NCBI GenBank assembly: GCA_963843835.1
Contig: CAWJMD010000008.1
Location: 388,043-452,042, forward strand
DNA length: 64,000 nt
Direction of reading: 5' to 3'
Source of the DNA: an uncultured Actinomycetota bacterium
GTDB lineage: Bacteria > Actinomycetota > Actinomycetes > Actinomycetales > CAWJMD01
The notes under the pieces were generated by a model, which was not told the origin of the DNA, searched no databases, and saw only the letters and a program-made list of their open reading frames with translations. Shown here in pieces: positions 1,548 to 41,907 of the stretch. The translations under genes and the position numbers were made by a program. The stretch's first letter is position 1, and every line of letters begins with the position of its first letter.

Positions 1548-2117
1548 CTACGCGCCGCCCGTCCTCGACCCGGCCTCGGCCGGCGCGGACGTCGCGAGGT
1601 CGAGCAGGGTCTCGCCCTCGAACGTGCCGAGGTCCTCGCGGTACAGCTCGATGCCGGACGCCGTTGGGGTCGCGGAAGTACATGCTCTCCTCGATCGCCG
1701 GCGTCGGGACCCGAGTACGCCATGCCCTGCTCGTCCAGGCGTGCGCGCAGCATGTCGTACTGCTCGCGCGGCACGCGAGATCGCGAGGTGCTGGATGCTG
1801 CCGACCGTCTCGGTGAACTCGGGATGGTCGTGCCCGGGAAAGTCGAAGAACCCCAACAGGTTGCCGTTGCCGAGGTCGAAGAAGAAGTGGCTGGAGCCGG
1901 CATAGTCGCGGTTCTCGACCAGCTCGACGAGGGGGAAGCCGAGCACCTCGGTGTAGAAGCGGATCGTCTCCTCGACGTCCTTGGCGATGAACGCGGCGTG
2001 GTGGATCCCGGCGGCGGTGGTGGTCGGGCGGTCCTCGCGTGGCCGCAGGTACCGCTCACGGATCTCGTCACGGCGGGTCCTGACGGCGTCCAGGTCGGCT
2101 CCAGTGGGCTGGGGCAT
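1548..2117 (-). pseudogene. VOC (glyoxalase/bleomycin-resistance/dioxygenase) family gene with three compensating frame shifts
   Basis: The 189-aa ORF has a VOC N-terminus (GIHHAAFIAKDVEETIRFYTEVLGFPLV, HFFFDLGNG) and C-terminus (GIELYREDLGTFEGE). The ~40 residues between them are Arg/Ala-rich nonsense. The expected motifs VPREQYDMLRARLDEQGMAYSGP and MYFRDPNG lie in the other two minus frames (ORFs 1478..2323 and 1282..1683). Shifts are near 1775, 1698 and 1655. Confidence 0.65.
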
Positions 2118-2118
2118 G

Positions 2119-3697
2119 TCAGGTGCTCCTCGCGGGGCTCGGCGGACGGCCGGCGCGGCCGGGGTCCCAGTCTGGCAGGGGCCCGTCGCGCCGCGACCTC
2201 AGGCGACGTGCGCCGGCGGCGGCCACGACGACGAGAGCAGCCACCGCCCAGCCCTGCCGGGCGGTGGTCAGGTCGTCGTGCAGCACGTACGCCCACCCCG
2301 CGGCGACGGGCACGGCGAGCCACTCAGGACGGCGTGCGAGGACCAGCAGCCCGACGAGGGGCAGCGAGTACCAGGGGTAGGCCGGGGTGGCCACGAGCAG
2401 TGCGGTCCCGAGCAGCCAGGTGGCGGTGTCCCACGGCCGCCGGGCGTCTGCCGTGCGCAGCGCGAGCGCCACAGCGACGGCTGCGACGACGAGCGCGATC
2501 GGCCACCGCGCAGCCAGCGGCACCGGCAGCAGCGCGATCACCCCGAACCGCGACCGGCCGTCGTCGAAGCCTTCCTCCACGACGTACGACGGCAGGTAGC
2601 CGAGCACAAGGGACCCGGCGACCAGCACGTGGGGCAGGTACGTGGCCGCCGCCGCCCCGACCGTGCCCAGCGGCACGAACAGCTGGCGCCGCGCGCCACC
2701 CGGAGCAGCGCGTCGCAGCACCGCGAGCGCCGGCAGCAGCAGCAGCGGCACCACCTTCGTCGCGACGGCCAGCCCGAGCAGGACGCCACCCACCACGCGG
2801 CCGCGCACCCGCTGGTCGAGCGCGAGCACGGCGCAGGCGCCGACGACCAGCGCGGTGGTCAGCACGTCGACGTGGGCGTTGTTGCCCGCCTCCACCGCGA
2901 CGACCGGCGACCAGCCCCACAGGGCGGCCCACCGCAGGTCCCGTCCGGTCCGCAGCAGCACACGACCGAGCAGGCCGGTCACTGCCACCGCGAGCGCCGC
3001 GGCTCCCAGCTGCAGCCCTGCCGTTCCGGCGCTCCACGGCGTCACCAGAGCGACCGCCGCGAACCAGGCCTGCGCGACCGGCGGGTAGATCGTGGGCACC
3101 TGCGGGCGGTTGACCGCGATCCGGTCGTCGTTGCGCGTCACCTGGCGCAGGGCCTTCGGGTCGGTGGGCAGGGGCCGGACGGTCCCGAGACCGCTGCTCT
3201 CGTCGGGACCCAGCCCGGGGAAGAGCAGCCGGGTCGCGGAGGGCGGCCAGCCGGTCGTCCGCCGGGGCGTAGCGGTACGGGGAGGTGCCGGAGAGCTGGA
3301 CCCTCCCGTCCCACACGTACCGGTAGGCGTCGGTGGACGTGAGGGGCGGCTGGGTGAGCCCGGGCACCTGGCAGGCGGCGGCGCCGAGCACCAGCACGGC
3401 CACGGCCAGCCCGCGGTGGCCGGCCGAGGGCCGCCTGCCCGACAGGCCCAGCGCCGCGGCGGCGGCGAACACCGCCCACGCGACGAGCCACCCGTAGGCC
3501 CACCCGCGAGGGTCGTCGGCCGCACTCCCCAGACGTGAGAGTCCGACCGACACCGTGACGCAGACCAGTCCGGCCGCGCCCCACCGCACGAGGGCACCCG
3601 TGTCTCGGCGGGTCGGGTCGCGGTCCGGCACGGCACCACCCTGCCTGCTCGCGGCAGCGGCGACGAGCGGGGGAGGCTCCGGACGGCGAGGCGTCAC
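2119..3697 (-). pseudogene. GT87/DUF2029-type polytopic membrane glycosyl(mannosyl)transferase, one apparent frameshift near 3229
   Basis: The N-terminal half is in ORF 2324..3871 (TDAYRYVWDGRVQLSGTSPYRYAPADDRLAALRDP). The C-terminal half is in ORF 2119..3639 (LLFPGLGP...NRPQVPTIYPPVAQAWF plus many TM segments). The join is cgc gac ccg [g] ctg ctc ttc. GTG 3697 is the proposed start. Confidence 0.65.
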
Positions 3698-3750
3698 GGT
3701 TTCGTCACCGCGGGCCCGGCCGGGAACCGCCTCGGTCTGCCTACGGTCGG

Positions 3751-5016
3751 GTGGTGTCGTCGATCCCGAAGCCCCTGGCGACCCTCGACCGCGAGGTCGG
3801 GCGTCGTGTCGACCGCCTGCGGAGCAGCCAGGCGCTGTCGTCACCGGTCCACGACGAGCGGGTGGCCGCACGCATCGGGGCGGTGCTGGGCCTGTGCTTC
3901 GTCATCTGCTTCGTCACCGGTGTCGTCAGCCACCTCCACCAGCACCCTGTCGCGTGGCTGCCGCTCGGCCCGAACCCGTCCTGGGGCTACCGGCTGAACC
4001 AGGGCCTGCACGTGGCCACAGGCCTTGCCTGCGTGCCGCTGCTGCTCGCGAAGCTCTTCGCCGTGTACCCGAACCTGCTCGCGTGGCCCCCGGTCCGGGG
4101 AGCGCTGCACGCCCTCGAGCGCACCTCGGTCGGGCTGCTGGTGGGCGCCGCGTTGTTCCAGGTGAGCACCGGCGTGATGAACATCTTCCAGTGGTACCCC
4201 TGGGGTTTCGGGTTCACCACCGTCCACTGGATCGTGGCGTGGGTGGCCATCGGGTCCGTGGTCCTGCACGTCGCGGTGCACCTGCCCGCGATCCGGCGGG
4301 GGCTCGCCACGCGCACGGACGCCGGACCGGTACGCCGGTCGTCGGCGGTCACCGAGTCCACCGAGTCCACCGAGACCGCCGGTCCGCGGTCGCCTGCTGC
4401 GATCGCCGACGCGGGGCGCACCCGTCGCGGCTTCCTCGTCGGCACCGGGCTGACGGTCGTCGCGGTCACGGTCGGCACGATCGGGCAGACCGTCGCGCCC
4501 TTGGGCTCCCTGGCCGTGCTGGCTCCCCGGCGCCCGGACATCGGCCCGCAAGGGCTTCCCGTCAACCGCTCCTCGGCCCAGGCAGGGGTCGGCACGTCGG
4601 CACTCGACCCCACCTGGTCGCTGGAGCTGGTCGGCCCCGACGGCAGCACGAGGCGCCTGGCCCGCGCCGCGCTGCTCGCGCTGCCGCAGCACCAGGCCGT
4701 GCTGCCCGTCGCGTGCGTCGAGGGCTGGAGCGCCAGCGCACGCTGGGGCGGGGTGCGCATCGCCGACCTGGTGGCGCTGTCGGGTGGTGGCACCGGCACC
4801 GCCGTCTCGGTCACGTCACTGGAGCAGCGGGGTGCCTACCGCCGGACGGAGCTGCCGGCCGCGTATGCCGCCCACCCCGACAGCCTGCTGGCGCTGCGCC
4901 TCGGCGACGAGGACCTCGACCTCGAGCACGGCTTCCCTGCGCGGATCATCGCGCCGAACCGTCCAGGGGTGCTGCAGACGAAGTGGGTCGCACGGCTCGA
5001 GGTAAGCCGTGGCTGA
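3751..5016 (+). CDS. molybdopterin-dependent oxidoreductase (sulfite-oxidase-like catalytic domain fused to N-terminal membrane domain)
   Basis: Intact 421-aa ORF. Has N-terminal TM helices with conserved His residues. The C-terminal part (VACVEGWSASARWGGVRIADL ... GFPARIIAPNRPGVLQTKWV) matches the oxidoreductase molybdopterin-binding fold. Confidence 0.8.
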   Translation: MVSSIPKPLATLDREVGRRVDRLRSSQALSSPVHDERVAARIGAVLGLCFVICFVTGVVSHLHQHPVAWLPLGPNPSWGYRLNQGLHVATGLACVPLLLAKLFAVYPNLLAWPPVRGALHALERTSVGLLVGAALFQVSTGVMNIFQWYPWGFGFTTVHWIVAWVAIGSVVLHVAVHLPAIRRGLATRTDAGPVRRSSAVTESTESTETAGPRSPAAIADAGRTRRGFLVGTGLTVVAVTVGTIGQTVAPLGSLAVLAPRRPDIGPQGLPVNRSSAQAGVGTSALDPTWSLELVGPDGSTRRLARAALLALPQHQAVLPVACVEGWSASARWGGVRIADLVALSGGGTGTAVSVTSLEQRGAYRRTELPAAYAAHPDSLLALRLGDEDLDLEHGFPARIIAPNRPGVLQTKWVARLEVSRG

Positions 5017-5482
5017 CGCACCGGTGGAGGGGGCCGCGCGGGCCGGCCGCGGAGCACGCCTGGCACGGCTGACGATCGGGGCGATCGGGCTGGCTGCGAT
5101 CACGGTGGGCCTGGTCCTGGCCGTGGTCGAGGTGCCGTCCGGCAGCAGGTTCGCGGTCGCGACGTGGCTCGTCGGCGGTCTCGTGGTGCACGATGCCGTG
5201 CTCGCTCCGGCGGCGCTGGTGCTGGGCGTCGTCGTTCTCGACCGCGTGCCTGCCGGCTGGCGTCCCGCCCTGCGGGCCGGGCTGCTGGGCGTCGGGTCGC
5301 TGGGGTTCCTGCTGGTCTGCCTCGTCGTGGCGACGGGGCTGAGGCGCAACCCCACGGTCCTGCCGCTCGACCCCGTCGTCGGGATGCTGGGTGCGCTCGC
5401 GCTGCTGTCCACGCTCGTGCTGCTGACGGCGGTGTGGACGGTTGACCGACGCCGGCACCGCGGCTCAGGCCGACTGGAGTGA
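5009..5482 (+). CDS. hypothetical integral membrane protein
   Basis: 157-aa ORF overlapping the upstream gene by 8 nt (coupled). Four or more hydrophobic segments. No family recognised. Confidence 0.6.
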   Translation: MADAPVEGAARAGRGARLARLTIGAIGLAAITVGLVLAVVEVPSGSRFAVATWLVGGLVVHDAVLAPAALVLGVVVLDRVPAGWRPALRAGLLGVGSLGFLLVCLVVATGLRRNPTVLPLDPVVGMLGALALLSTLVLLTAVWTVDRRRHRGSGRLE

Positions 5483-6716
5483 CCGCGCCGCGAGCAGCAC
5501 ACGCTGCGCGGCCCGCCACTCCTCGACGACGCTGAAGTCGTGGCGGACCAGCAGGTCCGTGAGGGCGCGGGCGCCCAGCCGCGCCCACGGGATCGGGGTG
5601 CTGGTCCGGCCGTCCTCGGCGCGCAGGACGACCCGGTCCCTGCTGTCGGCGTCGTCGTCGGGGTCGGCCTCGACGAGCAGCAGGCCACCGGGCCGCAGCA
5701 GGTCACGGCAGCGGTCCAGGATCGCATGGGGATCGCCGCCGATGCCGATGTTCCCGTCGGCGAGAAGTACCGTTCCCCAACGGCCTTCACCGGGCAGCCG
5801 GTCCTGGACGCGGCGCCTCAGCACGCAGGCACCGCGACGCGTCGTCAGCTCGACCGCGACCGACGACACGTCCACGCCGAGGGCGGCCAGGCCTCGTTCC
5901 GATGCCGCGGACACCAGACGCCCTGGGCCGCAACCGATGTCGATGACCGGTGTTTCGCAGCGACTGATCATCAGGTCGTCCACGTCGTCGGTGGGACCGG
6001 CCCACCGTGCCGCGTCGAGGGGCGTGTGGCGGCCCTGGTCGTCGACGAGCACCTGCTGTCCGGCGAGTGCCTCGTCGAACAGCACGAGCGGGTGCACGCG
6101 GCGAGCCGTCGTCTGCACCAGCCGTCGGTGGGTCGCCGCGAACCGGGTGCCGGGGTTGGCCCGCGCGACCTCGTCGGCGTCCTCCGGGGTGTCGACGTCG
6201 AGCAGCTCGGGCAGCAGCCGTACCCGCAGTCCGAGCCGCCGCAGTCGGTCGAGCTGGTCGGCTCCCGTGTGCGCGGTCGACATCGGCACGCCAACCATGG
6301 CGTCGGCCACCGGCCGGCGGAAGCCGATCGCCCAGTACCCCCCGTCGGCGCTGAGACCGAGCACCGCGTCGGCGCCCTCCCAGTCGACGTCCAGCAACGC
6401 CGGGGTGAGCTGGGGGGTGTCCATGCCGACGAGCAGCATCGGGCCGTGGCCCTCGACCGCGGCCGCGTCCTCGAACGCGGCCGCGAGCCGCTCGTCGAGC
6501 CCGTCCCCGCGCTGGGTCAGCACCTCGAAGCCCGCCGGCACCCAAGGGCCCGCGGACCCGTCCAGCACCAGGACCCGGCGGACGACGGGGAGCGATGCGA
6601 CGACGTCGAGGGTGTCGCCCAGGGCGGCAGCCGCGAGCTCACCGGCCTGGTCCGGGGTGAACCGTGCTCTGCAGCCGCGTCTTGACACGTCCGGGCAGCG
6701 GCTCCTTGGCGATCAC
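5465..6716 (-). pseudogene. DUF2064 (TIGR04282-like) domain fused to class I SAM-dependent methyltransferase; apparent frameshift near 6665
   Basis: ORF 5465..6688 has the DUF2064 core (LLVGMDTPQLTP, GLSADGGYWAIGF) followed by a methyltransferase (VIDIGCGPGRL, LLRPGGLLLV). The family N-terminus LLVIAKEPLPGRVKTRLQ sits in another frame, at the end of ORF 6639..7550. GTG 6716 is the tentative start. Confidence 0.6.
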
Positions 6717-6784
6717 CAGCAGCGTGCCCGTCCGTTCGGGCGGGCGACCGGCCGAGCGGTGGGCCGGCCGCCAGAGACGTCGCC

Positions 6785-7509
6785 TCACGACGCCAGCACC
6801 CGGCTCATGTCGCGCACGGCCCGGGCCGCGCCGAGCAGGGGTGCCGGTGACCTTCGACCGTCCCGAACGGGGCAGGTAGGCGACGTCGACCTCGCCGCAC
6901 GCGCCAGCCCGCGTCGGCGGCGGCGACGAGCATCTCCAGCGGGTAGCCCGACCGCCGGTCGGACAGGCCGCAGTCCGACCAGGGCATCGCGCCGGGCCGC
7001 GCGCATCGGGCCGAGGTCGTGCACCCGCACGCCCGGTGCGGCGGTGGATCCGACGGCACAGCTCGCGGTTCGCCAGCCGCAGGTGCCACGGCCACGCGCT
7101 GCGGCGTCGTCGGACGACGACGGCCCAGCACCAGGTCGGCCGTCCCTGTCGACCACGGGGTCGACGACCGCGCCCGAGGTGGCGGCGGGTCGAGTGAGCC
7201 GTCCGCGTCCATGAAGGCCACCACGTCGGCCGTCGCGGCCTCGAGACCGCGCGCGCACGCGGAGCCGAACCCCCGGACGGGAGCGACCACCACGGTGGCA
7301 CCCAGCCCGGCGGCGACGTCCGCCGAGCCGTCGACCGACCCGTTGTCCACGACGATCGCCCGATAGCCCTCGGGTATCCGTCCGAGCACCCACGGCAGGG
7401 CCTCGGCCTCGTCGAGGCACGGCAGCACCACGTCGACCGGCGCCTGCCGCTCCCCGTCCGGTCCGCCTGGCACGGGCCAGACGCTAGGCCCGGTCGGGGC
7501 ACCGGGCAC
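6785..7509 (-). pseudogene. family 2 glycosyltransferase (TIGR04283-like), about 8 frame shifts in its 3' half
   Basis: The N-terminal part is intact in ORF 6805..7824 (VDVVLPCLDEAEALP...AIVVDNGSVDGS...VAFMDADGSLDP). After that, recognisable segments hop between the three minus frames in this order: RHLG, AVVDPVV, TGTADLVLGRRRPTTPQR, SAWPWHLRLANRELCRRIHRRTG, VRVHDLGPMRAARRDALVGL, GLSDRRSGYPLEMLVAAADAGWRV, GEVDVAYLPRSGRSKVTGT, LLGAARAVRDMSRVLAS. The start (GTG 7509 or 7473) is uncertain. Confidence 0.65.
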
Positions 7510-7594
7510 CTCGAAGCGACGATGACGGTTCGTTGACGTGACCGGTCCACCGCCGGCAGAGCGGGCCGGCGGGGCCACCGGCGTCCGTAGGGTG

Positions 7595-8317
7595 ATGAGC
7601 GTGAGCGCCCGCGTGCTGATCGTCGAGGACGACCGCACGGTGTCCGACGTCGTGCAGGCGTACCTCAGCCACGCCGGCCTCGAACCGCGGGTGGTCGACG
7701 ACGGGATGGACGGTCTCGACGCCTGGCGCACGTGGAAGCCCGACCTCGTGGTCCTCGACCTCATGCTCCCGACCCTGGACGGGCTGGAGGTGCTGCGCCG
7801 CGTCCGGGCGGACGGTGACCGCACGCCCGTCGTGGTGCTGTCAGCGCGCGGCGACAGCGAGGACCGTGTGATCGGGCTCGAGGTCGGCGCGGACGACTAC
7901 CTGGCCAAGCCCTTCAGCCCGCGTGAGCTGCTGCTGCGCGTGCAAGGGCTGCTGCGCCGCGACGAGCGGCTGCGGCGCGCCGACCTGCTGCCCCGCCAGC
8001 TCGCGCGGGGCCCGCTCGCGATCGACACGGTCGCGCGGGCCGTGACGCTGCGCGGCGAGCCGCTGTCGCTGACGCAGCGCGAGTTCGACCTGCTCGTGTT
8101 CCTGGTGGACCACCCGGGTGAGGCCTTCGGCAAGCGCGACCTGCTGCGCCGTGTGTGGGGATGGGACTTCGGGGACACCTCGACCGTCGCCGTGCACGTG
8201 CGGCGGGTCAGGGAGAAGGTGGAACGGGACGCCTCGGACCCGCGCCTCGTGGTGACGGTCCGCGGCACGGGGTACAGGTTCGCCACCGACGCCGAGCTCG
8301 AGGGAGGGAGCACATGA
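7595..8317 (+). CDS. OmpR/PhoB-family response regulator
   Basis: Receiver domain (RVLIVEDD, DLVVLDLMLP, KPF) plus winged-helix DNA-binding domain (LTQREFDLLVFL, TVRGTGYRF). ATG 7595 preferred over the ORF start at 7538. Confidence 0.9.
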   Translation: MSVSARVLIVEDDRTVSDVVQAYLSHAGLEPRVVDDGMDGLDAWRTWKPDLVVLDLMLPTLDGLEVLRRVRADGDRTPVVVLSARGDSEDRVIGLEVGADDYLAKPFSPRELLLRVQGLLRRDERLRRADLLPRQLARGPLAIDTVARAVTLRGEPLSLTQREFDLLVFLVDHPGEAFGKRDLLRRVWGWDFGDTSTVAVHVRRVREKVERDASDPRLVVTVRGTGYRFATDAELEGGST

Positions 8318-9487
8318 CCGGGGCTCTGCTGACGGTGCTGGTGCTGACCATCGCCTCGTGCCTGGCCACGGGGCTGGTCGGCGTCGTGGTCCTCCGGGCG
8401 ATGCGCCGCCGCCCGATCACGGTCGTCCTCGTGATGGCCGTGCTCGTGCCGGTCGTCGCCGTCGCCGTGTCGGTCGTCGTCAACGTGCAGGCGATGTTCA
8501 TCTCGGTGCACGACTCGCAGGTCATGCTCGCCGCACTCGGTGCGGCACTCGTGACCGCGGTCGTGCTCGCCGTCGTCGTCGGTCGCTGGCTGGTCGCCGG
8601 GTCCCGGGCGGTAGGACGGGGACTGCAGGTGCTGGGCGCCGAGGAGGGAGCCGTCGTCGTCGAGGGCGGACCGTGACGACCTCTCGCCGAACCTGGCCCT
8701 CCCCGCCGAGCTGGCCGCCCTGGACCACGAGCTGAGGGCCACGAGGCAGCGGCTGGACGCGGCTCGGGCGCGGGAACGAGGTCTGGAGGCGAGCCGGCGC
8801 GAGCTGGTCGCGTTCCTCTCGCACGACCTGCGGACCCCGCTCGCCGGTCTGCGGGCGCTGGCCGAGGGGCTCGAGGACGGGGTCGTCGACGACGTGCCCG
8901 CGGCGCTCGCCCAGGTGCGCTCGTCCGTCGACCGGATGAACGGTCTGGTCGACGACCTCTTCGAGCTCTCCCGGCTGAGGGCCGACGGCGGACCGAGCGT
9001 GCGCTCGCTGGTCAGCCTGCGCGAGGTGGCCGAGGACATGGCCCGGGAGTGCGAGGAGCAGGCGCGCGCCTCGGGAGTGAGCCTGTGCGTCGAGGCGGAC
9101 GACAGGCTAGCGGTGCACGGCGTGCCCGAGGATCTGGCGCGGGCCCTCTCGAACCTCATCTCGAACGCGCTCCGCCACACCCGCTCCGGTGGTGAGGTGC
9201 TCGTGCGAGGTGCCCGGGACGCCGACGGCCGCGTCGTGCTGGCCGTGGTCGACGGCTGCGGGGGCATTCCCGCGCAGGACCTCGACCGCGTCTTCGACAC
9301 GGGCTGGCGCGGGGACCCGGAGCGGACACCCGGCGACGGGCGGGCGGGCCTCGGGCTGGCGATCGCCCGCGGTGTCGCGGAGTCGCACGCGGGCTCGCTC
9401 GAGGTGGCCAACACCAGTGAGGGGTGCCGCTTCGAGCTGGTGCTGCCCGCCGCGCCGGCCACGGACCGGCGCCTGGTCACCGGCTGA
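8314..9487 (+). pseudogene. sensor histidine kinase, reading frame broken at 8674
   Basis: ATG 8314 overlaps the regulator's stop (ATGA). The TM/sensor part ends at TGA 8674-8676. The next frame continues directly with DDLSPNLALPAELAALDHEL...LVAFLSHDLRTPL (H-box) and the HATPase domain of ORF 8894..9487 (NLISNALRHT, DGCGGIP, GLGLAIA). Removing T8674 restores one ORF. Confidence 0.7.
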
Positions 9488-10553
9488 CCGGGCGCCCTAC
9501 GAGGTCGGCGAGCCCGTCGGGGAGCGCCACGCGCGCCTGCCACCCGAGCTCGTCGGCGATGCGTCGCGAGGACGCGGTGACGTGCCTGACGTCGCCGAGC
9601 CGGTACTCACCGGTCCTGACGGGCGTCGGGCCGCCGATCACGTCGGCCAGCGCGGAGGCCACCTCCCCGATGGTGGTCACGCGACCGGACCCCACGTTGT
9701 AGGCGCGCAGCGCCCCCTCGTCCGGCCCCGAGGCGGTCAGCGCGGTGACCACCGCGCGCGCCACGTCGTCGACGTGCACGAAATCGCGGCGCTGCCGCCC
9801 GTCCTCGAAGACCCTGGGTGCCCGTCGCGCCTCGAGCGCGGCACGGAACACCGCGGCCACGCCTGCGTAGGGCGTGTCCCGGGGCATGCCCGGGCCGTAG
9901 ACGTTGTGGAACCGCAGGGCCACCGCGCCGCCGCCGGTCTCGCGGGCCCAGGTCGCGCACAGGTGCTCGCCGTGCACCTTCGTCGCGGCGTACACGTTGC
10001 GAGGGTCGAAGGGTGCGGTCTCGTCGACCAGCGCCGGGGTCAGCGTCCGCCCGCAGTCGGGGCACCCGGGGTCGAACCGGCCCTGCTCGAGGTCGGCCCG
10101 CCGCCGCGGTGCGGGCGCCACCCGGCCGTGCTCGGTGCAGTCGTACGCGCCCTCGCCGTAGACGACCATCGACGACGCCAGGACCAGCCGCCCGACCCCG
10201 GCCCGCCGCATCTGGCGAAGCAGCACCGCGGTGCCCAGGTCGTTGCTCGACACGTAGTCGTCCACGTCGTCGAGATCGACACCGAGCCCGACCTTGGCGG
10301 CCAGGTGGGCGACCGCGTCGACCCCGTCGAGGGCCCGGTCGACCGTCGGACGGTCGCGCACGTCCCCGTGCACGAGGTCTGCGTGCACCGTGGGGTGCGG
10401 GCCCGGCACGTGGACGTCAGGACGCAGGCTGTCGAGGACGACGACGTCGTGGCCCGCGTCGTTCAGCCGGCTGACGACCTGGGACCCGATGAAACCGGCT
10501 CCGCCGGTGACGAGGACGCGCACGGCCTCACTGTGCCACCGCCGGACCGTCAC
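9477..10553 (-). CDS. NAD-dependent epimerase/dehydratase (extended SDR)
   Basis: VLVTGGAGFIGS Rossmann motif and YAATK catalytic motif. Contains an inserted CxxC...CPDC segment. The real start may be GTG 10523. Confidence 0.85.
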   Translation of the reverse strand: MTVRRWHSEAVRVLVTGGAGFIGSQVVSRLNDAGHDVVVLDSLRPDVHVPGPHPTVHADLVHGDVRDRPTVDRALDGVDAVAHLAAKVGLGVDLDDVDDYVSSNDLGTAVLLRQMRRAGVGRLVLASSMVVYGEGAYDCTEHGRVAPAPRRRADLEQGRFDPGCPDCGRTLTPALVDETAPFDPRNVYAATKVHGEHLCATWARETGGGAVALRFHNVYGPGMPRDTPYAGVAAVFRAALEARRAPRVFEDGRQRRDFVHVDDVARAVVTALTASGPDEGALRAYNVGSGRVTTIGEVASALADVIGGPTPVRTGEYRLGDVRHVTASSRRIADELGWQARVALPDGLADLVGRPVSR

Positions 10554-10562
10554 GGCGTGACA

Positions 10563-10593
10563 AGGCCCCTCGAGCTCATACCTCGAGGGGCCT
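10563..10593. other. perfect 12-bp stem / 7-nt loop hairpin (AGGCCCCTCGAG ctcatac CTCGAGGGGCCT)
   Basis: Read directly from the sequence. It lies at the end of a 300-nt gene-free interval, just upstream of the epimerase start on the minus strand. Confidence 0.5.
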
Positions 10594-11951: not shown

Positions 11952-12203
11952 GAGCAGTTCGGCGTCGTCCACGGTTCCCTCGCCTGCCGTCGGGTGCGGG
12001 GCGGCATGCCCCGTGCGGGTGCATCGGCAGGGTCTCGCGTGCCCTTGAGCGTGCTGGAGGGCCTGTACTGGCGTGGTGGGTGGTGCGCAGGAGGCTGGTG
12101 AGGCAGACTGTGCCTCGCGAGCACGCCGCCGCACCGGGCGACGCCCGTGGTGAGCACCGAGGTCCGTGGGGAAGACGTACCTCAAGCCACCAGGGAGGTC
12201 GGT

Positions 12204-17630: not shown

Positions 17631-18814
17631 GACGAGCTCCCGGCGGGGTGGAGCCGCAGCAGGGGCTGGCCGGGGGAGACGGGGTCGCCCTCCTCCACCA
17701 GCCACTCCACGACCGTGCCGCCGTGCTGGGCGCGCACGTCGTGCCCGTCGCGCAGGCCCTCGACGCGGGCTACCACGCTGCCTGCCACGACGTCGTCGCC
17801 GGCGCCGGCGGCGGTCAGGAGCCGGACGGCACCCTTGGCGGGCGCCACGACCAGACGCCACGTCGGCGAGCTCTGCAGAGGACTGCCGACGCCGTGGCGC
17901 TCGACCATGTCGCGCGCCGTGTCGAGGTCGGCCGGCGTCTTGAGCGCGAGCGTCTCGACCCCGGGCAGCGCCCGCTTGGCGAGGTTGGTCAGCGTTCCGG
18001 CCGGCGGGATCTCGATCAGGCCGGTCACGCCGAGCTCGGCGAAGGTCTGCATGCAGAGGTCCCAACGCACCGGGTTGCTCACCTGGGTGACGAGGCGCTT
18101 GAGGACGTCGCGACCGTCGTGGACGACGGTGCCGTCGGCGTTGGACAGCAGCAGGGCCCGCGGGTCGTGGGTCGACATCGCCCGCGCGTGGCGGCCGAGC
18201 ACGTCGACGGCCGGCGACATGTGCCGGGTGTGGAAGGCGCCGGCGACCTGGAGCGGGATGACGCGGGCCTTGGCCGGCGGCTCGTCCGCCAGCGCGGCCA
18301 GCTCGTCCATGGTGCCGGCGGCGACGACCTGGCCGGCCCCGTTGACGTTGGCCGGGGTGAGTCCGTGCTTGTCGAGGGCCGCGAGCACCTCGTCCGGGTC
18401 GCCGCCCACGACGGCGCTCATGCCGGTCGGCGTGACCGCGCTGGCCCCGGCCATCGCCCGTCCGCGCTCGCGCACGAAGACCATGGCCTGCTCGGCGCTG
18501 ATCACGCCGGCCGCCGACGCGGCCGTGATCTCACCGACGCTGTGACCGGCTCCGCCCGCGATCACCGCGAAGGCGTCGGCGGGGTGGGGGAACAGGGCGA
18601 GGAGCGACACGAGGCCGGCGCCCACGATGAGGGGCTGCGCCACGGCGGTGTCGCGGATGGTGTCGGCGTCGGAGGTGGTGCCGTGCGCGACGAGGTCGAG
18701 ACCGGCGACGGTCCCGAGCCAGTCGAGACGCTCACGGAAGCCCGGTACCTCCAGCCACGGGGAGAGGAAGCCGGGGCTCTGGGACCCCTGGCCGGGGCAG
18801 ACGATGACGAGCAC
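17627..18814 (-). CDS. fabD: malonyl-CoA:ACP transacylase with ~85-aa C-terminal biotinyl/lipoyl-like domain
   Basis: GTG 18814 preceded by GGAAGGTGGAG. FabD motifs CPGQGSQ, GHSVGE and the AGAFHT region. An extra C-terminus follows: WRLVVAPAKGAVRLL...VVARVEGLRDGHDVRAQHGGTVVEWLVEEGDPVSPGQPLLRLHP. Confidence 0.85.
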   Translation of the reverse strand: MLVIVCPGQGSQSPGFLSPWLEVPGFRERLDWLGTVAGLDLVAHGTTSDADTIRDTAVAQPLIVGAGLVSLLALFPHPADAFAVIAGGAGHSVGEITAASAAGVISAEQAMVFVRERGRAMAGASAVTPTGMSAVVGGDPDEVLAALDKHGLTPANVNGAGQVVAAGTMDELAALADEPPAKARVIPLQVAGAFHTRHMSPAVDVLGRHARAMSTHDPRALLLSNADGTVVHDGRDVLKRLVTQVSNPVRWDLCMQTFAELGVTGLIEIPPAGTLTNLAKRALPGVETLALKTPADLDTARDMVERHGVGSPLQSSPTWRLVVAPAKGAVRLLTAAGAGDDVVAGSVVARVEGLRDGHDVRAQHGGTVVEWLVEEGDPVSPGQPLLRLHPAGSSS

Positions 18815-18891
18815 GTCTCCACCTTCCCCTGCGAGGTGGGCGCGATCGGGCTCCGAACCGGACAAGGATCTCTCGGAAACTTGGAGGGTTC

Positions 18892-24956: not shown

Positions 24957-24961
24957 GCACG

Positions 24962-32383: not shown

Positions 32384-32411
32384 CGGGCCGGGTCGGGAGT
32401 ACGCTGAGCGC

Positions 32412-32817: not shown

Positions 32818-32991
32818 ACCCCCGGGTCGCCGCTCACGAGGCAGGCGCCGGGACCGCCGAGCAGGCGGTTCGGAATCTCCCGAAGAAACTTCGCCGAGAC
32901 CCCTCAAGGTTTCCGCGAAGCGTGCCGACAACAGCCTCACGGCGCCGATCCAGGGGTGGACTGGCCAGTTGAACCGGGATGGACGGATCTG

Positions 32992-33780
32992 ATGCGACAG
33001 CGAGTGGTGCTGGCCCCGCGCAATGCGGGTGAGGCGGTGGCAGTGGCGGTCTCCGCCGTGCTGATCGCCGGCAGCGTCGTCGCCGTCATCCAGCGCGACA
33101 CCCCGCAGCCCCAGCCCGTGCCCGCGTCGGTCGTCGCCACCCGTGACGTCCGCACCGTCTCCACGCCCGGGCAGATGGATCGGGTCGAGATCGGCGTGGA
33201 CGGATCCCGCCTGCCTCGCGTCCCCGTCTTCGTCGAGGAGGCCCCCAAGGTCCTCGCGAACCCCATCACCCGGCAGGTCGGCCCGCGCACGCAGCAGCGG
33301 TCCACGAACCCCTCGGCGAGCGCGCCCCTGCTGGAGGGCCTCGGGCCGTCCCAGCCGGTACCGACCCCGAGCGGCGTGAGCATCGTGCAGGACTTCCCGG
33401 TGCCGCTCCCGCCCGCGTCGACCGCGACCCCCTCGGAAACGCCCTCGAGCAGCCCGACGACGACCACGCCGACGACCGCGCCGACGTCGCCCGCGTCGAC
33501 CACATCGGCCTCCCCCGCGGCGACCACGCCGCCACCGGCCCCGTCTCCCAGCGGGACTCCTGCGTCCTCGCCGACGACCAACGCCTCGCCGGCGCCGGAG
33601 GGGACTCCGGCGACGGGTTCGTCCTCGGTGCTGCAGACCCCGCCGGCGACGGCGGTGCCGCCGCCGAGCGCGTCGCCCACGCCGGCGCCGCCGCCGGGAA
33701 CGGCTCCGACTCCCCAGGGCGGGGCGCCGTCCGGTGGAGGGATGGGCGAGCCGACGCCCCAGTCGTCGTCCGGCAACTGA
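32992..33780 (+). CDS. membrane-anchored Pro/Thr/Ser-rich protein
   Basis: ATG 32992. One N-terminal TM segment (AVAVAVSAVLIAGSVVAVI) and a long low-complexity PTS-rich C-terminus. Confidence 0.6.
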   Translation: MRQRVVLAPRNAGEAVAVAVSAVLIAGSVVAVIQRDTPQPQPVPASVVATRDVRTVSTPGQMDRVEIGVDGSRLPRVPVFVEEAPKVLANPITRQVGPRTQQRSTNPSASAPLLEGLGPSQPVPTPSGVSIVQDFPVPLPPASTATPSETPSSSPTTTTPTTAPTSPASTTSASPAATTPPPAPSPSGTPASSPTTNASPAPEGTPATGSSSVLQTPPATAVPPPSASPTPAPPPGTAPTPQGGAPSGGGMGEPTPQSSSGN

Positions 33781-33810
33781 GGCCGTCGGGACCGCAGGCT
33801 GCCGCGTAGG

Positions 33811-34725
33811 TCAGGGCAGGGTCAGGATCTCCGGGCCGGACTCGGTCACCAGGATCGTGTGCTCGAACTGCGCCGTGCGCAGGCGGTCCTTCGTCACCAC
33901 CGTCCAGCCGTCGTCCCACATGTCCCACTCGCGGGTCCCGAGGGTGAGCATCGGCTCGACGGTGAACGTCATGCCCACCTCGATCACGTCGGAGTGCCGG
34001 GGTGCGGCGTCGAAGTGGGGGATGATCAGGCCGGAGTGGAACGCCGTGCCGATGCCGTGTCCGGTGAAGTCGTGGACGGTGTCGAGCCCGTTCCTGCGCG
34101 CGTAGGACTCGATCACCTTGCCGATGACGTTGACCTGGCGCCCCGGCAGGGCAGCACGGATGCCGCGCATCGTCGCCGCCTCCGCGTGCTCGACCAGCGC
34201 CCGGGTCTGGGGGTCGGGCTCGCCCGCGAAGAAGGTCGCGTTCGTGTCCCCGTGCACCCCGCCGATGTAGGCCGTGATGTCGATGTTGCAGAGGTCGCCG
34301 TCCACGAGGACGGTCGAGTCCGGGATGCCGTGGCAGACGACCTCGTTCACCGAGGAGCACAGGGACTTCGGGAAGCCCTTGTAGCCCAGGGTGGACGGGT
34401 AGGCGCCGTGGTCGAGCAGGAACTCGTGACCGATGCGGTCGAGCTCGTCGGTGGTCACGCCCGGGACGATGTGGCGACCGACCTCAGCGAGGGCCTGCGC
34501 CGCGATGCGACCCGCGATCCGCATCCGCTCGATGGTCTCGTCGTCCTTGACGTCCGGCCCCGGGTCGGCCGACGGTGCGGGCCGGTCGACGTACTCGGGC
34601 CGGGGGATCGAGGCGGGCACCGGACGTCGGGGGCTCACCCGTCCGGGCGTCAGGGTGCCGACGGGTGCGGTCTCGGAGAAGGAACCGACGTGCGGGGGCG
34701 TGCCGGTGCTGGTGCTGGACGACAT
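33811..34725 (-). CDS. map: type I methionyl aminopeptidase (with N-terminal extension)
   Basis: [26 protein letters not shown] and FTVEP metal-ligand motifs. Confidence 0.95.
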
Positions 34726-34816
34726 GCCCCGAGTCTAGGTGTGCGTCGGCAGGGCGGATGGGGCAGCATCGGGTCCGTCCGGGGGTTCCCCGGGGCGGAC
34801 CACCACGGAGGCTGAC

Positions 34817-35014
34817 GTGACCGAGTACTGGTTCAACACGCGCACGCGGCAGGTCGAGGAGGGCCACCAGAGCGACTGGGCGAACCTGATGGGTCCGTAC
34901 CCGACGCGTGCCGACGCGGAGCGCGCGCTCGACAAGGCCCGGGAGAATACCGAGCGCTGGGACCGCGAGGACAAGGAGTGGCAGGACCGCACCTGGGACG
35001 ACTCGGAGGACTGA
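34817..35014 (+). CDS. small conserved hypothetical protein (65 aa)
   Basis: GTG 34817 follows GGAGG. VTEYWFNTRTRQVEEGHQSDWANLMGPYPTRADAERAL... Confidence 0.55.
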   Translation: MTEYWFNTRTRQVEEGHQSDWANLMGPYPTRADAERALDKARENTERWDREDKEWQDRTWDDSED

Positions 35015-35015
35015 C

Positions 35016-36614: not shown

Positions 36615-37612
36615 CGGGTCACCTTCGGCAGCACGTCACGTCCGAAGACCTCGATCCACTCGGCCTGGTTGCGGCCGACGTTGTGGAGGTAGATCCGGTC
36701 GAACCCGAGGTCGGCGAACTTCTGGATCGCGGAACGGTGCACGTCGGGGTCGGAGGAGATCACCATGCGTCCCTCGAAGTCCTCCGGCCGCACGAGAGCC
36801 GCCATCGCCGCGAAGTCGTGAGGACTGCGGATGTCGGCCTTGCCGAACTTCATCCCGCCATTGGGCCACTGGTCCAGCGCGTTCGCAAGGGCCTGTTCGT
36901 CCGTCTCCGCCCACGACATGTGCAGCTGCAGGACCTTCGGCATGGCGTCCGGGTCCTTGCCGGCCTTGCGGGCTCCCTCGGCGAACCTGCCGAAGAGCAT
37001 GTCGATCTTCTCCAGCGGAGCCCCGACGGTGATCATCCCGTCGGCGAACTGGCCGGTCTTGCGTGCGTTGACGGGGCCGGCGGTGGCGACCAGGATCGGC
37101 GGCGCCTTCTCCGGCATCGTCCAGAGCCGTGCCGTCTCGTGCTTGAAGAAGTCGCCCGAGAACTTCGTGTCCTTGCCCTCCAGCGAGGCGTCGAACAGCT
37201 GCCGGATGAGCCGGATCGCCTCCCACATCCGCGACGACCGCTCGCCGGCCTCGGGCCAGTAGCCGGGCACGACGTGCTCGTTGAGAGCCTCGCCGGTGCC
37301 GAGACCGAGCCAGCTGCGGCCGGGGTACATCGCCTCCAGCGTCGCGGCGGCCTGGGCCACGATCACGGGGTGGAAGCGGAAGCTCGGGCAGGTGACGCCC
37401 GGACCGAGGTCACCCTTGGTGCGCTCGCCGACCGCCGTGAGGACGTTCCAGACGAACGACGCCTGCCCTTGGGCCGGTACCCAGGGCTGGAAGTGGTCGG
37501 CCGCCATGCACCCCGAGAACCCGTGCTGCTCGGCCAGAGCCGTCAGCTGCACGCACTCGGTGGGGTGGAACTGCTCCAGCATCGCCGCGTACCCGAAGGC
37601 CTGGGAACCCAT
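36611..37612 (-). CDS. LLM-class F420-dependent oxidoreductase (G6PDH-family type)
   Basis: 333 aa. FGYAAMLEQFHP...DHFQPW...LGLGTGEALNE matches the luciferase-like F420 G6PDH-family pattern. A 4-nt overlap links it to the downstream gene. Confidence 0.8.
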   Translation of the reverse strand: MGSQAFGYAAMLEQFHPTECVQLTALAEQHGFSGCMAADHFQPWVPAQGQASFVWNVLTAVGERTKGDLGPGVTCPSFRFHPVIVAQAAATLEAMYPGRSWLGLGTGEALNEHVVPGYWPEAGERSSRMWEAIRLIRQLFDASLEGKDTKFSGDFFKHETARLWTMPEKAPPILVATAGPVNARKTGQFADGMITVGAPLEKIDMLFGRFAEGARKAGKDPDAMPKVLQLHMSWAETDEQALANALDQWPNGGMKFGKADIRSPHDFAAMAALVRPEDFEGRMVISSDPDVHRSAIQKFADLGFDRIYLHNVGRNQAEWIEVFGRDVLPKVTR

Positions 37613-37825
37613 GGGGCGACCCTAGTGCGGGCGGGAGTGGCGGCGGCTGACAGGTCCTCCCGCGTGCTCCCCTCGTCGCCGTGAGTCAGCCGGGGTGGGA
37701 CCTGGGTGGGCTTGCCGATCCCGGTGCCACCGCTGGCGAACCGACGAACGTTCGGCTCTTCCGCGATGAACCACGGACGGGCACCATGATCGGGAGGGCC
37801 TGAGGTCCTCTCATCGAGGTGTCGC

Positions 37826-38644
37826 GTGAGCAGTCAGGACGATCGGGTCGAGGCCTTCCGGCGGTTGCACTCCTCCGGCTGCTTCGTCATGCCGAACCCG
37901 TGGGACGTCGGGAGCGCGCGTGCCTTGGAGCAGCTCGGCTTCTCGGCGCTCGCCACCACGAGTGCCGGCTTCGCCTGGACGCTGGGTCGTCCAGACCAGC
38001 ACGTCACGCTCGAGGAGATGCTCGAGCACCTCCGTGCCGTCGTCGACGCGGTGGGCTTGCCGGTCAACGCAGACTTCGAAGGCGGCTTCGCGGTCGATCC
38101 GCAGCAGGTTCACGCGAACGTGGAGCTCGCCGCGCACACGGGGGTCGCCGGGCTGTCGATCGAGGACTCGACAGGGGACGAGGCGCATCCGCTCCACGAC
38201 CTTGACCAGGCGGTCGAGCGGATTCGGGCCGCACGCGACGCGATCGATGGCAGCGGTACGGGCGTCGTCCTGACCGGTCGGTCCGAGGGGTTCGTCGTCG
38301 GACGACCCGACATCGACGAGACGATCCGCAGGCTGCGCGCCTACGCGGAGGCCGGCGCCGACTGCCTGTACGCGCCGCGGATCGGAACCGTCGAGCAGGT
38401 CGCGGCGATCGTCGACGCCGTGTCACCCAAGCCGGTGAACCTGCTGATCAACGCGCCGTTCATCACGGTCGCGCAGGCGGCCGCACTCGGAGTACGGCGG
38501 ATCAGCGTGGGCGGAACGCTCGCGCGCACCGCGTGGGCCGGCTTCCTCCAGGCGGCGCAGGAGATCGCCGGCGCCGGGACGTTCTCCCGGTTCGAGAACC
38601 TGCCGGACGTCGACGGACTCCTCAGCCCGGACGCGGAGGCATAG
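37826..38644 (+). CDS. isocitrate lyase / PEP mutase family protein
   Basis: PNPWDVGSARALE...NADFEGGF...GLSIEDS. Confidence 0.8.
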   Translation: MSSQDDRVEAFRRLHSSGCFVMPNPWDVGSARALEQLGFSALATTSAGFAWTLGRPDQHVTLEEMLEHLRAVVDAVGLPVNADFEGGFAVDPQQVHANVELAAHTGVAGLSIEDSTGDEAHPLHDLDQAVERIRAARDAIDGSGTGVVLTGRSEGFVVGRPDIDETIRRLRAYAEAGADCLYAPRIGTVEQVAAIVDAVSPKPVNLLINAPFITVAQAAALGVRRISVGGTLARTAWAGFLQAAQEIAGAGTFSRFENLPDVDGLLSPDAEA

Positions 38645-38739
38645 GAGGGGGCGTTCGAGCGACCGGGAGGGCCGGTCCGAGGTGCGATCCCCGGGAACCC
38701 TGCCCGGGCGACCTTCTCGACCCCAGTCCTTCGTCGCCT

Positions 38740-38803
38740 CAACGAGATGCGACCAGTCGGGCCGGGACGACGCCCCTGCTGCCATACTTCTCGCATCTCG
38801 TTG
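38740..38803. repeat. 13-bp perfect inverted repeat (CAACGAGATGCGA ... TCGCATCTCGTTG), 38-nt spacer
   Basis: Read directly. It lies in the 300-nt spacer between convergent genes. Confidence 0.75.
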
Positions 38804-38868
38804 CCCCGTGTGATCAGCCGTCCTGACCAACGGGGTCGATGGCCCCGACTCAGGGCCTGCGCTCGACC

Positions 38869-38943
38869 CCGATTCTCCCGAGATCGGGGGTCGGGAGGGC
38901 ACGCGGCGGACCGATTCTCCCGAGAATGGGGCTGGGACGACGG
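38869..38943. repeat. two direct copies (period 42 nt) of CCGATTCTCCCGAGA(A)T(C)GGGG, each an imperfect palindrome
   Basis: The 15-nt identical cores are at 38869-38883 and 38911-38925. The flanks are similar (tcgggggtcggga / atggggctggga). Arms are CCGATTCTC / GAGAATgGG. Confidence 0.75.
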
Positions 38944-39165
38944 TCAGCCGCCCCCGCCGGACTTGCGGCGGAACGTCTTCTGCGGCTTCGCCGGCGCCGA
39001 GTGCGGGTGCTGGGCCGCCGGGTTGTGGGCGATGCCCTCGCCGCGGTGGCCGTACTTCTTGCGGTCGAGCGCCTCGCGGAACTTGCGGCGAGCCGCGTCC
39101 TGCGGCGTCTCGGTGCCCTCCGGGACGTCCGGCGGCGTGCTCTCGTCGTTCGTCGGCTCGCTCAT
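38944..39165 (-). CDS. DUF5302-like small basic protein (73 aa)
   Basis: ATG 39165 within ORF 38944..39546. ...AARRKFREALDRKKYGHRGEG...KTFRRKSGGGG. Confidence 0.6.
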   Translation of the reverse strand: MSEPTNDESTPPDVPEGTETPQDAARRKFREALDRKKYGHRGEGIAHNPAAQHPHSAPAKPQKTFRRKSGGGG

Positions 39166-39214
39166 GCGTCCATCCTGTCGGTGCGAGGGGCTGCTGACCA
39201 ATGCGTTTGCCGGC

Positions 39215-40090
39215 TCAGTCCTCGAACGAGTGCTCCGGGGCGGGGAACTGGCCCGACCTGACGTCCTCGGCGTAGGCGCGGGCGGCCTGCGACAACGTGC
39301 CACGCAGGTCCGCGTACTTGCGCACGAACCGGGGTGCCTTGCCCCCACGCAGGCCCGCCATGTCCTGCCAGACGAGAACCTGTGCGTCACAGGCGGACCC
39401 GGCGCCGATCCCGATCGTCGGGATGGCCAGCACCTCGGTGGTCCGGGCGGCGACGGGTGCCGGCACCATCTCCAGCACCAGCGAGAAGGCACCCGCCGCC
39501 TGCAGGTCGCAGGCGTCCTGGACGAGCTGGTCCGCCGCGTCCCCACGTCCCTGCACGCGGTACCCGCCGAGGGCGTGCTCGCTCTGCGGGGTGAACCCGA
39601 GGTGGGCCATCACCGGGATGCCGGCCTCGACCAGCGCCGCCACGGTCGGCACGACGCGGGCGCCGCCCTCGAGCTTCACCGCGTGGCAGCGTCCCTCCTT
39701 CATGAAGCGGGTCGCCGTCGCCAGGGCCTGCTGCGGCCCCTCCTGGTACGAGCCGAACGGCAGGTCGGCCACGACGAGGGCGCGGCGCACGCTGCGGGTC
39801 ACCGCCCGCACCAGCGCCAGCATCTCCTCGACCGTGACCGGCAGGGACGTGTCGTAGCCGTAGACGTTGTTGGCGGCGGAGTCGCCGACCAGCAGCACGG
39901 GGATGCCTGCCTCGTCGAAGATCTCGGCCGCGTACTGCTCGTACGCCGTGAGCATCGCCCAGCGCTCGCCCCGCTCCTTCATCTGCTGAAGGTGGTGGAT
40001 GCGGACCTTCGAGGTTCCGGACGCGGTCGGCGACGCGCCCGGTGCCGACGCCGCCGGCCCGTTGCCGTACGGCGCGCTCTGCTCACTCAT
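39215..40090 (-). CDS. panB: 3-methyl-2-oxobutanoate hydroxymethyltransferase
   Basis: [33 protein letters not shown] and VKLEGG motifs. Confidence 0.95.
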
Positions 40091-40127
40091 GGGGGACCTT
40101 CCTGTGGGACGTCGGCGGCGGCGGGAG

Positions 40128-41907
40128 TCAGCTGTCCTGCTCGCGCCAGCGGCTGGTGACGGGGAGCCGGCGGTCGCGTCCGAACGCGATGCGGCTGATC
40201 TTCGGGCCCGGGGCGAACTGCCGCCGCTTCCACTCGGCGCGGTCGACCAGGCCGACGACGCGGTCGACCACGTCGGCGTCGAAACCGGCCTCGAGCAGCT
40301 CCGACCGGCCCTCGGCGCCGACGACGTACCGCTCGAGCACGGCGTCGAGCAGCTCGTAGGGCGGGAGCGAGTCCTGGTCGACCTGGCCCGGGGCCAGCTC
40401 GGCTGACGGGGGTTTGGTGATGGAGCTCTCCGGGATCGGCGGCTTCTCGCCGGACTTCTCGGCCCGGGCGTTGCGCCACCGCGCCAGCTCCCAGACCAGC
40501 GTCTTCGGCACGTCCTTCAGCGGTGCGAAGCCGCCGACGGAGTCGCCGTAGATCGTCGAGTACCCGACCGCCAGCTCGCTCTTGTTGCCCGTCGCCAGGA
40601 CGAGGTGGCTCTCCTGGTTCGAGATGCCCATCAGGATCGCGCCGCGCACGCGGGCCTGGAGGTTCTCCTCCGCGACCCCGGTCAGCTTCAGCTCGTCGAG
40701 GTAGGTCGCCACCACGGCGCCGATCGGCTGCACCCGGTAGTCGACGTCCAGCCCGCTCCGCCAGGTCGGCGGCGTCGTCCCTGGAGTGCTCGGACGAGTA
40801 CTTGCTCGGCATCGACACCCCGACGACGTTCGGGCCGCCGACCGCGTCGGCGGCGACCGCCGCGACCAGCGCCGAGTCGATGCCGCCGGAGAGCCCGAGG
40901 ATCACCGACGAGAAGCCGTTCTTGCGCACGTACTAGCGCAGACCGACGACGAGCGCCTGGTAGACCTCCTCGACGGGGTCCAGGCGCGGTGCGCACGGTG
41001 CGGGCATGCGGGTCGTAGGCGGCCACCGGCTCGTCGGAGACCACGGTCAGCTCGACCGACCCCGTCGCCGCGTCGGTGTCCAGGCGCGACTCCGGCAGGT
41101 CGAGGTCGACCACGATCAGCTCCTCGGCGAACTGCGCGCCGCGCGCCAGCACCTCGCCGTCCGGCGACGACGACGACCGAGTCGCCGTCGAAGACGAGGT
41201 CGTCCTGCCCGCCCACGAGGTTGAGATACGCCAGCGTGGCCTCCGCCTCGGCCGCGCGGCGGCGCACCAGCGCGAGCCGGGCGTCGTCCTTGTCCTGCTC
41301 GTAGGGGGAGCCGTTGAGCACCAGCAGCAGCTCCGCGCCGGCCTCGCGGGTCATCGCCACCGGGCCGCCGTCCTGCCAGAGGTCCTCGCAGATCCCGAGG
41401 GCGACGTCGACCCCGGCGACGCGCACCACGTGCAGCCGCTGCCCGGGCACGAAGATGCGGAACTCGTCGAAGACGCCGTAGTTGGGCAGGTGGTGCTTCG
41501 CGTAGCGCGTCGCCATCTCGCCCCGGTGCAGCACCGCGGCGCAGTTCTGCGGCATGCCCTTCGGGATGCCGGTCTCCCCGTCCTCGCTCACGCCGTCGCC
41601 GTCGAGGTCCGCGTCGGTCCCCTCCGCGCGGTCGAGGTAGCCGACCACGACGGGGGTCCCGCCGAAGCCCGTCCGCCGCCAGGTCGCGCGCCAGCTCGGC
41701 GATCGCGGCCCGTGAGGCGTCGACGAAGGAACGGCGCAGGGCGAGGTCCTCGACCGGGTAGCCGGTCAGCACCATCTCGGGGAAGGCGACCAGGTGCGCA
41801 CCGGCCTCGACGGCCTTGGCCGTCCAGGTCCTGACCAGTGCTGCGTTGGCCGCCAGGTCACCCACCGTGGGGTCGACCTGGGCCAGGGCGAGTCGCAGCT
41901 GCGGCAT
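40128..41907 (-). pseudogene. nadE: glutamine-dependent NAD+ synthetase, 4 frame shifts plus in-frame TAG
   Basis: Recognisable segments are spread over track ORFs 41116..41907 (CN-hydrolase N-terminus), 40902..41648, 40688..41152, 40087..40929 (SGGIDS PP-loop) and 40128..40733. Shifts are near 41669, 41163, 41008 and 40753. TAG at 40933-40935 interrupts EEVYQALVVGLR*YVRKNGF. Confidence 0.75.

Follow-up and report, generated by a model that had tools for sequence, protein, structure and literature searches.

Eighteen same-direction frame changes in six genes of an actinobacterial contig: very probably insertion-biased consensus errors

Are the interrupted reading frames in a stretch of an uncultured actinobacterial genome mutations of the organism, or were they introduced when its sequence was produced? 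The question is raised by a window of 64,000 nucleotides (positions 388,043 to 452,042 of contig CAWJMD010000008.1, assembly GCA_963843835.1), in which an earlier note, made from the sequence alone, had claimed ∼18 frame changes, all in the same direction and all confined to six genes. The window, which here means the whole of this stretch, has a guanine plus cytosine (GC) content of 73% and carries ∼60 genes that, by Pfam assignment, form a typical actinobacterial set and include a fab operon, aceE, glnA/glnE, panB, nadE and a xanthine-dehydrogenase-type molybdenum enzyme. Among named organisms, Angustibacter and Thalassiella have the NadE proteins nearest to that of the window (75-77%), and the closest sequence overall is the 2.07-Mb contig ena:ERZ25039476:contig_12652, referred to below as the sister. 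The claimed count, direction and confinement all held in the alignments and in a model-based frame track, and the pattern of events is real and non-random. It is highly probable, from the sequence comparisons described here, that the 18 frame changes are insertion-biased consensus errors of a long-read metagenome-assembled genome (MAG) and not mutations of the organism.

Reading frames were followed over the whole window by a seven-state Viterbi track based on a codon model that had been trained on long, confident genes. Plain open reading frame (ORF) lists and an argmax frame plot of third-position GC were too noisy at this base composition and were superseded. The Viterbi track revealed same-strand frame changes that were not accompanied by a gene boundary in exactly six genes. 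A custom frameshift-aware protein-to-DNA alignment, in which intact orthologues served as references, placed 18 events in these genes and matched the per-gene counts claimed for them (3, 1, 1, 8, 1 and 4). For base-level placement, the window was aligned by MAFFT with two pieces of the sister: L081, syntenic with 29.9-51.1 kb of the window at ∼87% nucleotide identity, and L084, syntenic with 0.6-13.9 kb at ∼85% nucleotide identity. Two further loci, L082 and L083, are short-read assemblies of a relative more distant than the sister. The six genes and the extra bases assigned to them are as follows.

1548-2117, minus strand: VOC/glyoxalase-family gene; three events, insertions at ∼1775, 1695 and 1653 (sister alignment and nucleotide alignment).
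2119-3589, minus strand: GT87-family glycosyltransferase; one event, insertion at ∼3230, with a possible second at 2164.
5465-6788, minus strand: DUF2064 plus methyltransferase fusion gene; one event, one extra A (sense strand) at 6665.
6785-7473, minus strand: GT2 glycosyltransferase (226 residues in relatives); eight events, insertions between 7185 and 6837.
8314-9487, plus strand: sensor histidine kinase (HisKA and HATPase_c); one event, one extra G at ∼8666 (Pfam and alignment).
40128-41907, minus strand: glutamine-dependent NAD+ synthetase, nadE (591 residues in the sister); four events, insertions at 41665, 41162, 41007 and 40757, and a nonsense codon.

In the VOC gene, the Pfam Glyoxalase family matches profile positions 1-78 of 121 only, in one frame. 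Alignment with the 173-residue sister protein P0241 gave three +1 events, each resolved at the nucleotide level as one extra base, and the deposited call for this gene of the window (P0244, 189 residues) reads through out of frame. The event in the GT87 gene was placed at 3226-3235 by six distant references and by the 485-residue sister protein; in the nucleotide alignment the insertion falls at 3230, and one C more than in the sister stands at 2164. The latter lies in a C4 run within the non-conserved C-terminal tail, 15 codons before the stop. Dropping C2164 regains similarity to the tail of the sister protein but loses the stop codon (CGA instead of TGA). Given that its removal costs the gene its stop, the base at 2164 is ambiguous and may be either a 19th +1 event or a natural difference of the tail.

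The DUF2064-methyltransferase fusion showed one +1 event at 6665, flanked by gapless alignment with both L082 (440 residues) and the sister (438 residues), at the junction TRLQS!RFTPDQ. Here, the window reads CAGAGC[A]CGG and the sister CACAGC-CGA. The deposited call P0121 (407 residues) starts at a GTG (6688) a little upstream of the lesion and is read in the frame that follows it. Both P0121 and P0244, which are deposited on a 1,339,117-bp contig, match the frameshifted ORFs. In the adjoining GT2 gene, extra bases were located at 7185, 7169, 7141, 7105, 7031, 6971, 6896 and 6837, and protein alignment with L082 and eight other references gave +1 events at 7185, 7169, 7141-7150, 7104, 7034, 6970, 6894 and 6836. 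The first two are five in-frame codons apart in the protein alignment; MAFFT merged them into one 2-nucleotide gap.

For the kinase, protein alignment gave the +1 event at 8665-8689, and the extra G falls in a GGG run on the plus strand where the sister has GG (window GAGGGCGG, sister GAGG-CGG). The “kinase” of the earlier note is this sensor histidine kinase, and T8674 had been named as the site of its shift. The shift itself was recovered, but T8674 is the first base of the TGA (8674-8676) at which the old frame stops, the extra base lying at ∼8666. In nadE, the Pfam CN_hydrolase and NAD_synthase domains are split over four frames, and alignment with P0001 gave four +1 events at 92% identity. 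A stop codon in frame, TAG at 40933-40935, is a further lesion of this gene; the sister reads TCG (Ser) there, and the single sense-strand C-to-A change is the sole substitution-type disabling lesion across the six genes.

Each shift had been described as equivalent to one inserted nucleotide or to two lost. The protein alignments are gapless across nearly every junction, and therefore one base was added at these sites rather than two removed. The MAFFT alignment with the sister likewise shows one extra nucleotide in the window for each of the 18 events. A mixture of +1 and -1 events had been named in advance as the outcome that would speak against the claim; the frameshift-aware alignment gave +1 events only and no -1 event in any comparable coding region of the window. 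The six genes thus hold 18 insertions, 0 deletions and 1 substitution lesion, and the probability of 18 of 18 events sharing a direction is 7.6e-6 by a sign test. The clustering, too, is far beyond chance, as had been argued against uniform random error. When 18 events were distributed uniformly over 60 genes, six or fewer genes were hit in 0 of 200,000 simulations (P < 5e-6), and at least eight hits within the 671-nucleotide GT2 gene have a probability of 1.5e-11.

Several further signals were examined and set aside. An extra frame change at 33004-33708 was a false switch of the track within a Pro/Thr/Ser-rich low-complexity protein (32992-33771, plus strand) that is intact in comparison with its 255-residue sister orthologue, and a change at 12018-12112 is located upstream of what is probably the true start of a hypothetical gene. 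An apparent +2 event at 6786 is the natural 4-nucleotide overlap of the GT2 and DUF2064 genes, and another at 9462 arises from misalignment of the unconserved tail of the kinase. The 462- and 129-residue neighbours in L082, considered as references for GT87 and VOC, are not orthologues; proteins of other loci and of the sister took their place.

On the criteria of complete Pfam domains and collinearity with the orthologues of the sister, the other ∼54 genes of the window are intact. This agrees with the claim that most other genes are uninterrupted, and glnE is among them. Intact genes also stand between the broken ones: the molybdenum (Mo)-oxidoreductase, a 164-residue membrane protein, the response regulator and the epimerase are all free of lesions. 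Three of the intact genes are listed below.

3739-5007, plus strand: cytochrome-b-like plus molybdopterin oxidoreductase; intact by Pfam and full-length against L082 without frameshift.
7601-8314, plus strand: OmpR-type response regulator, between GT2 and the kinase; intact by Pfam, no events against L082 or the sister.
44085-47162, plus strand: glnE, 1025 residues; intact by Pfam, with four insertions in the sister orthologue.

The orthologues of all six broken genes are intact in the sister (L081 and L084). In L082 and L083, the histidine kinase, GT2 and DUF2064-methyltransferase genes are uninterrupted; these two loci have no usable GT87, VOC or nadE counterpart.

Four of the six broken genes belong to a gene cluster (window 2119-10553; L084 3278-9954; L082 6258-12962; many of the loci L001-L080) that is conserved across Actinomycetota and was met in Kitasatospora, Streptomyces, Frankia, Actinoplanes and many MAGs. 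Encoded in it are an NAD-dependent epimerase, a histidine kinase, an OmpR-type regulator, GT2, the DUF2064-methyltransferase fusion and GT87, and it presumably serves envelope glycan modification. GT2 and DUF2064 align in a single stop-to-stop frame in many loci, in which the two may be fused. The cytochrome-b-like/Mo-oxidoreductase gene and the gene for the 164-residue membrane protein lie inside the cluster in the window and in L082 and are missing from it in the sister.

If the genes had been inactivated in the organism, their sequences would be expected to bear other marks of it. A gene dead for long enough to collect four to eight insertions or deletions (indels) should also have collected dozens of unconstrained substitutions and some deletions. 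After frame restoration, NadE is 92% identical to the sister protein and deviates at 2 highly conserved columns in an alignment of 120 homologues, both of which deviate in the sister as well. Restored GT2 deviates at 4 of 72 conserved columns, in every case where L082 also deviates. Neither corrected protein carries a private change at a conserved column. Of the nucleotide differences between nadE and its sister counterpart, 75% fall at codon position 3, and the intact neighbours range from 60 to 84%. By these measures of constraint, the six genes are not decaying, and old pseudogene decay is ruled out because private changes at conserved columns are lacking and third-position bias is normal. 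The argument that natural decay is not unidirectional was likewise borne out, as neither deletions nor loss of conserved residues were found. The notion that nadE is a foreign or chimeric segment was also considered and dropped, its nucleotide identity to the sister being ordinary and without local divergence.

Inactivation could instead be real and very recent in the sampled population or its dominant strain, with an insertion-specific, locally clustered mutational process having turned the GT2/DUF2064/GT87/kinase cluster, VOC and nadE into young pseudogenes. The lesions do stand in the deposited sequence, nadE has its nonsense codon in addition to the insertions, and four genes of one conserved cluster could decay jointly. 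Bacterial pseudogene decay is deletion-biased, however, and there are no deletions here; nor are there private substitutions at conserved sites despite up to eight indels in 350 nucleotides, and the bias toward third positions is that of living genes. nadE is essential in most bacteria, and five disabling lesions in it are therefore implausible; glnE, which is hit in the sister, is normally indispensable too. Moreover, insertion-only lesions recur in the sister, there in different genes, and among Nanopore MAGs of unrelated organisms, so that they seem to track how a genome was sequenced and assembled and not its lineage. We regard recent inactivation as very unlikely.

The comparison that carries most weight is that with the sister, which has lesions of its own where the window is intact. 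Alignment of window GlnE with L081 DNA, together with the nucleotide alignment, revealed four +1 events in sister glnE (L081 4720-7792), at L081 positions 7285, 7266, 6950 and 5233. The gene is called there as fragments of 250 and 780 residues. Once corrected, its product is 90% identical to window GlnE, with 75% of the differences at third positions. An extra C at L084:797 splits a 213-residue hypothetical ORF of the sister into calls of 133 and 83 residues, and the first 17 codons of sister VOC have probably been lost to an extra A at L084:9988, just after the start codon. The total is 5-6 events of +1 type, and no -1 event was detected in ∼42 kb of the sister. Lesions of constant sign that move between genes of two assemblies, spare the conserved residues and strike essential genes behave like a property of sequence production.

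The same type of lesion was sought more widely. A contig scan with the Mo-oxidoreductase of the window yielded 80 loci, among them 12 from Microflora Danica Nanopore MAGs, 29 from short-read MAGs and 38 from isolates; as no relative of the same species was among them and identity reached at most 55%, they were used for synteny and a coarse frame plot and not at base level. A screen for pairs of high-scoring segment pairs was then applied to 45 subjects (42 loci, the two sister loci and the window) with isolate proteins as queries, and candidates were realigned with the frameshift-aware procedure. This screen, although insensitive, returned three clean mid-gene +1 events, each in a different Microflora Danica Nanopore MAG locus (L031:4003, L036:4243 and L076:12503); two are in the epimerase gene and one is in DUF2064. 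In the 29 short-read MAG loci the same insensitive screen gave no mid-gene +1 event, only natural gene junctions. Recurrent -1/+2 signals corresponded to the natural GT2/DUF2064 overlap. The MAG that contains L031 had been deposited as a complete chromosome.

The name of the sister, contig_12652, follows the same “contig_N” pattern as the titles of the Microflora Danica MAGs, a pattern that we take to be the Flye default. Those MAGs were assembled with metaFlye --nano-hq and then subjected to one round of Medaka (PMC12313526). Flye nanopore assemblies have been described elsewhere as having “contained many insertion errors”, with an indel-to-mismatch ratio of 47:1 (PMC11232133). Nanopore bins below ∼40x require polishing, and microdiversity lowers MAG quality (PMC9262707); localized heterogeneity within a population may leave regions unpolishable (proovframe preprint). 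We infer that the window, too, probably derives from a long-read (Nanopore-type) metagenome pipeline.

A quite different way to account for shifts of a single sign is programmed recoding, in which +1 ribosomal frameshifting or transcriptional slippage would still yield full-length proteins. The uniform direction is what +1 frameshifting would give, and one nadE site reads CTT-C, which resembles the CUU-U slip of prfB. The 18 alignment contexts show no apparent common motif, whether of the methylation type or slippery, and there is no stop or rare codon at the shift. Eight shifts in 350 nucleotides of GT2 would leave a negligible yield, and transcriptional slippage is inapplicable at sites outside homopolymers. 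Since neither the sister nor any further orthologue has a shift at any of these sites, recoding is effectively excluded.

The density of the events was also considered as a sign of a patched or merged assembly, in which stretches were bridged by one or a few uncorrected long reads or contigs were merged. The hotspots (9 events in 530 nucleotides and 3 in 125) approach the indel rates of raw reads, the flanking genes are clean, and raw errors of PacBio continuous long reads (CLR) are, according to the literature, mostly insertions (∼8% insertions, 3% deletions and 2% substitutions). A raw read would nevertheless have contributed deletions and substitutions as well, and the counted lesions are 18:0:1. 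The lone events at 3230 and 8666 are isolated among unbroken genes and do not add up to one continuous patch, and scattered single events occur also in Nanopore-only MAGs that were not patched. A patch or merge is an unlikely source of these lesions.

The explanation that we favor is that of insertion-biased errors retained in the consensus of a long-read MAG. Spurious bases would have been kept at short stretches of the window (1653-1775, ∼3230, 6665-7185, ∼8666 and 40757-41665), where effective read support may have been low, through either low depth or the co-occurrence of reads from strains that the polisher could not reconcile. If the consensus procedure settled such ambiguity toward the longer path, insertions would survive and deletions would be filled. 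Both this local cause and the preference for keeping bases are proposals that we infer from the pattern of the lesions. In the cell, the six genes themselves are almost certainly whole and working. Of the three kinds of cause that the earlier note had put forward, the technical ones (low-quality data and a patched assembly) are favored as a group, and nothing was found in favor of an unusual mutational process.

A number of observations weigh against consensus error. The artefact is deduced from assembled sequence. The earlier note had remarked that some shifts fall in short G runs and others do not, and indeed only 4-5 of the 18 insertions extend an identical neighboring base and none of the 18 lies within a run of at least four, which is unlike the classic Nanopore error profile. 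The off-homopolymer position of most sites lowers the standing of a classical homopolymer error but not that of a consensus error as such. The inserted bases, on the displayed strand, tally at roughly 7 G, 5 C, 4 A and 2 T, which is near the composition of the genome. Local GC was tried as the cause of the hotspots and rejected, since enrichment is weak and the VOC hotspot is below average; it does not account for the choice of hotspots. Of the five genes hit in the first region, four are members of the one conserved cluster, as real decay of a pathway would have it. Finally, the segment-pair screen missed the events of the window itself, the queries being 45-55% identical, and its three events in Nanopore MAGs versus none in short-read MAGs are indicative only.

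Were the extra bases real after all, a Kineosporiales/Angustibacter-like lineage comprising the window and the sister would have to undergo a localized, insertion-only mutation and to tolerate it, a reading that we consider extremely unlikely. The same reading would need the hits, clusters of +1 frameshifts in individual genes, to extend to the normally essential nadE and glnE, with tolerance arising from heterogeneity among genome copies or from a novel frame-restoring mechanism.

Some differences between the window and the sister, and one feature of the window, are recorded here in their own right. The sister has a gene for a 239-residue UbiE-type methyltransferase between ndh and glnA that the window does not have (window 48487-48705 compared with L081 2497-3216). 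At 37883-38638 the window has a PEP-mutase-family gene, and the sister has a Glyoxalase_6 gene there instead. Directly upstream of fabH, at 17639-18817 on the minus strand, the window encodes a FabD-like malonyl-CoA:ACP transacylase of 393 residues with a C-terminal extension of ∼80 residues; the extension gives a weak biotin/lipoyl-like Pfam match (E ∼1e-6) and is in frame without a stop.

For practical purposes, the six genes are best treated as intact, and the frame changes as having no biological import. The consequences lie in the deposited record, in which an NAD+ synthetase, a two-component kinase and the proteins of a glycosylation cluster are wrongly annotated, as if truncated or chimeric. 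The miscalls of 407 and 189 residues are already in protein databases, and a metabolic reconstruction from this MAG would falsely score NAD biosynthesis as absent. The signature of the lesions (insertion-only, mostly off-homopolymer and clustered) differs from textbook homopolymer deletions, and quality control focused on homopolymers would overlook it. Such genomes are better re-polished, or corrected by a frameshift-aware procedure, before pseudogenes or gene losses are deduced from them.

Three known systems invite comparison. prfB-type +1 frameshifting shares with the window the direction of the shift. Its sites, however, are single, conserved among orthologues and defined by a motif, and those of the window are none of these. 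Pseudogene decay, as in Mycobacterium leprae and in recent host-restricted lineages, resembles the window in placing several lesions in a gene and in affecting the genes of one cluster. Such decay brings a mixture of deletions, insertions and larger indels, many substitutions and a raised ratio of nonsynonymous to synonymous change (dN/dS), whereas the window has +1 events only and normal constraint. Errors of long-read MAGs (Nanopore metaFlye plus Medaka, or PacBio CLR) are like the lesions of the window in that single-base indels interrupt reading frames that relatives have whole and in that indels far outnumber substitutions. They are commoner in bins of low coverage or with microdiversity (PMC9262707). 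By contrast, such errors are classically tied to homopolymers, and the window, with 4-5 of 18 insertions extending a neighbor and none in a run of at least four, departs from them in this respect, as it does in its insertion-only character (all 18 events of the window and all 5-6 of the sister) and in the clustering of 8 events within 350 nucleotides.

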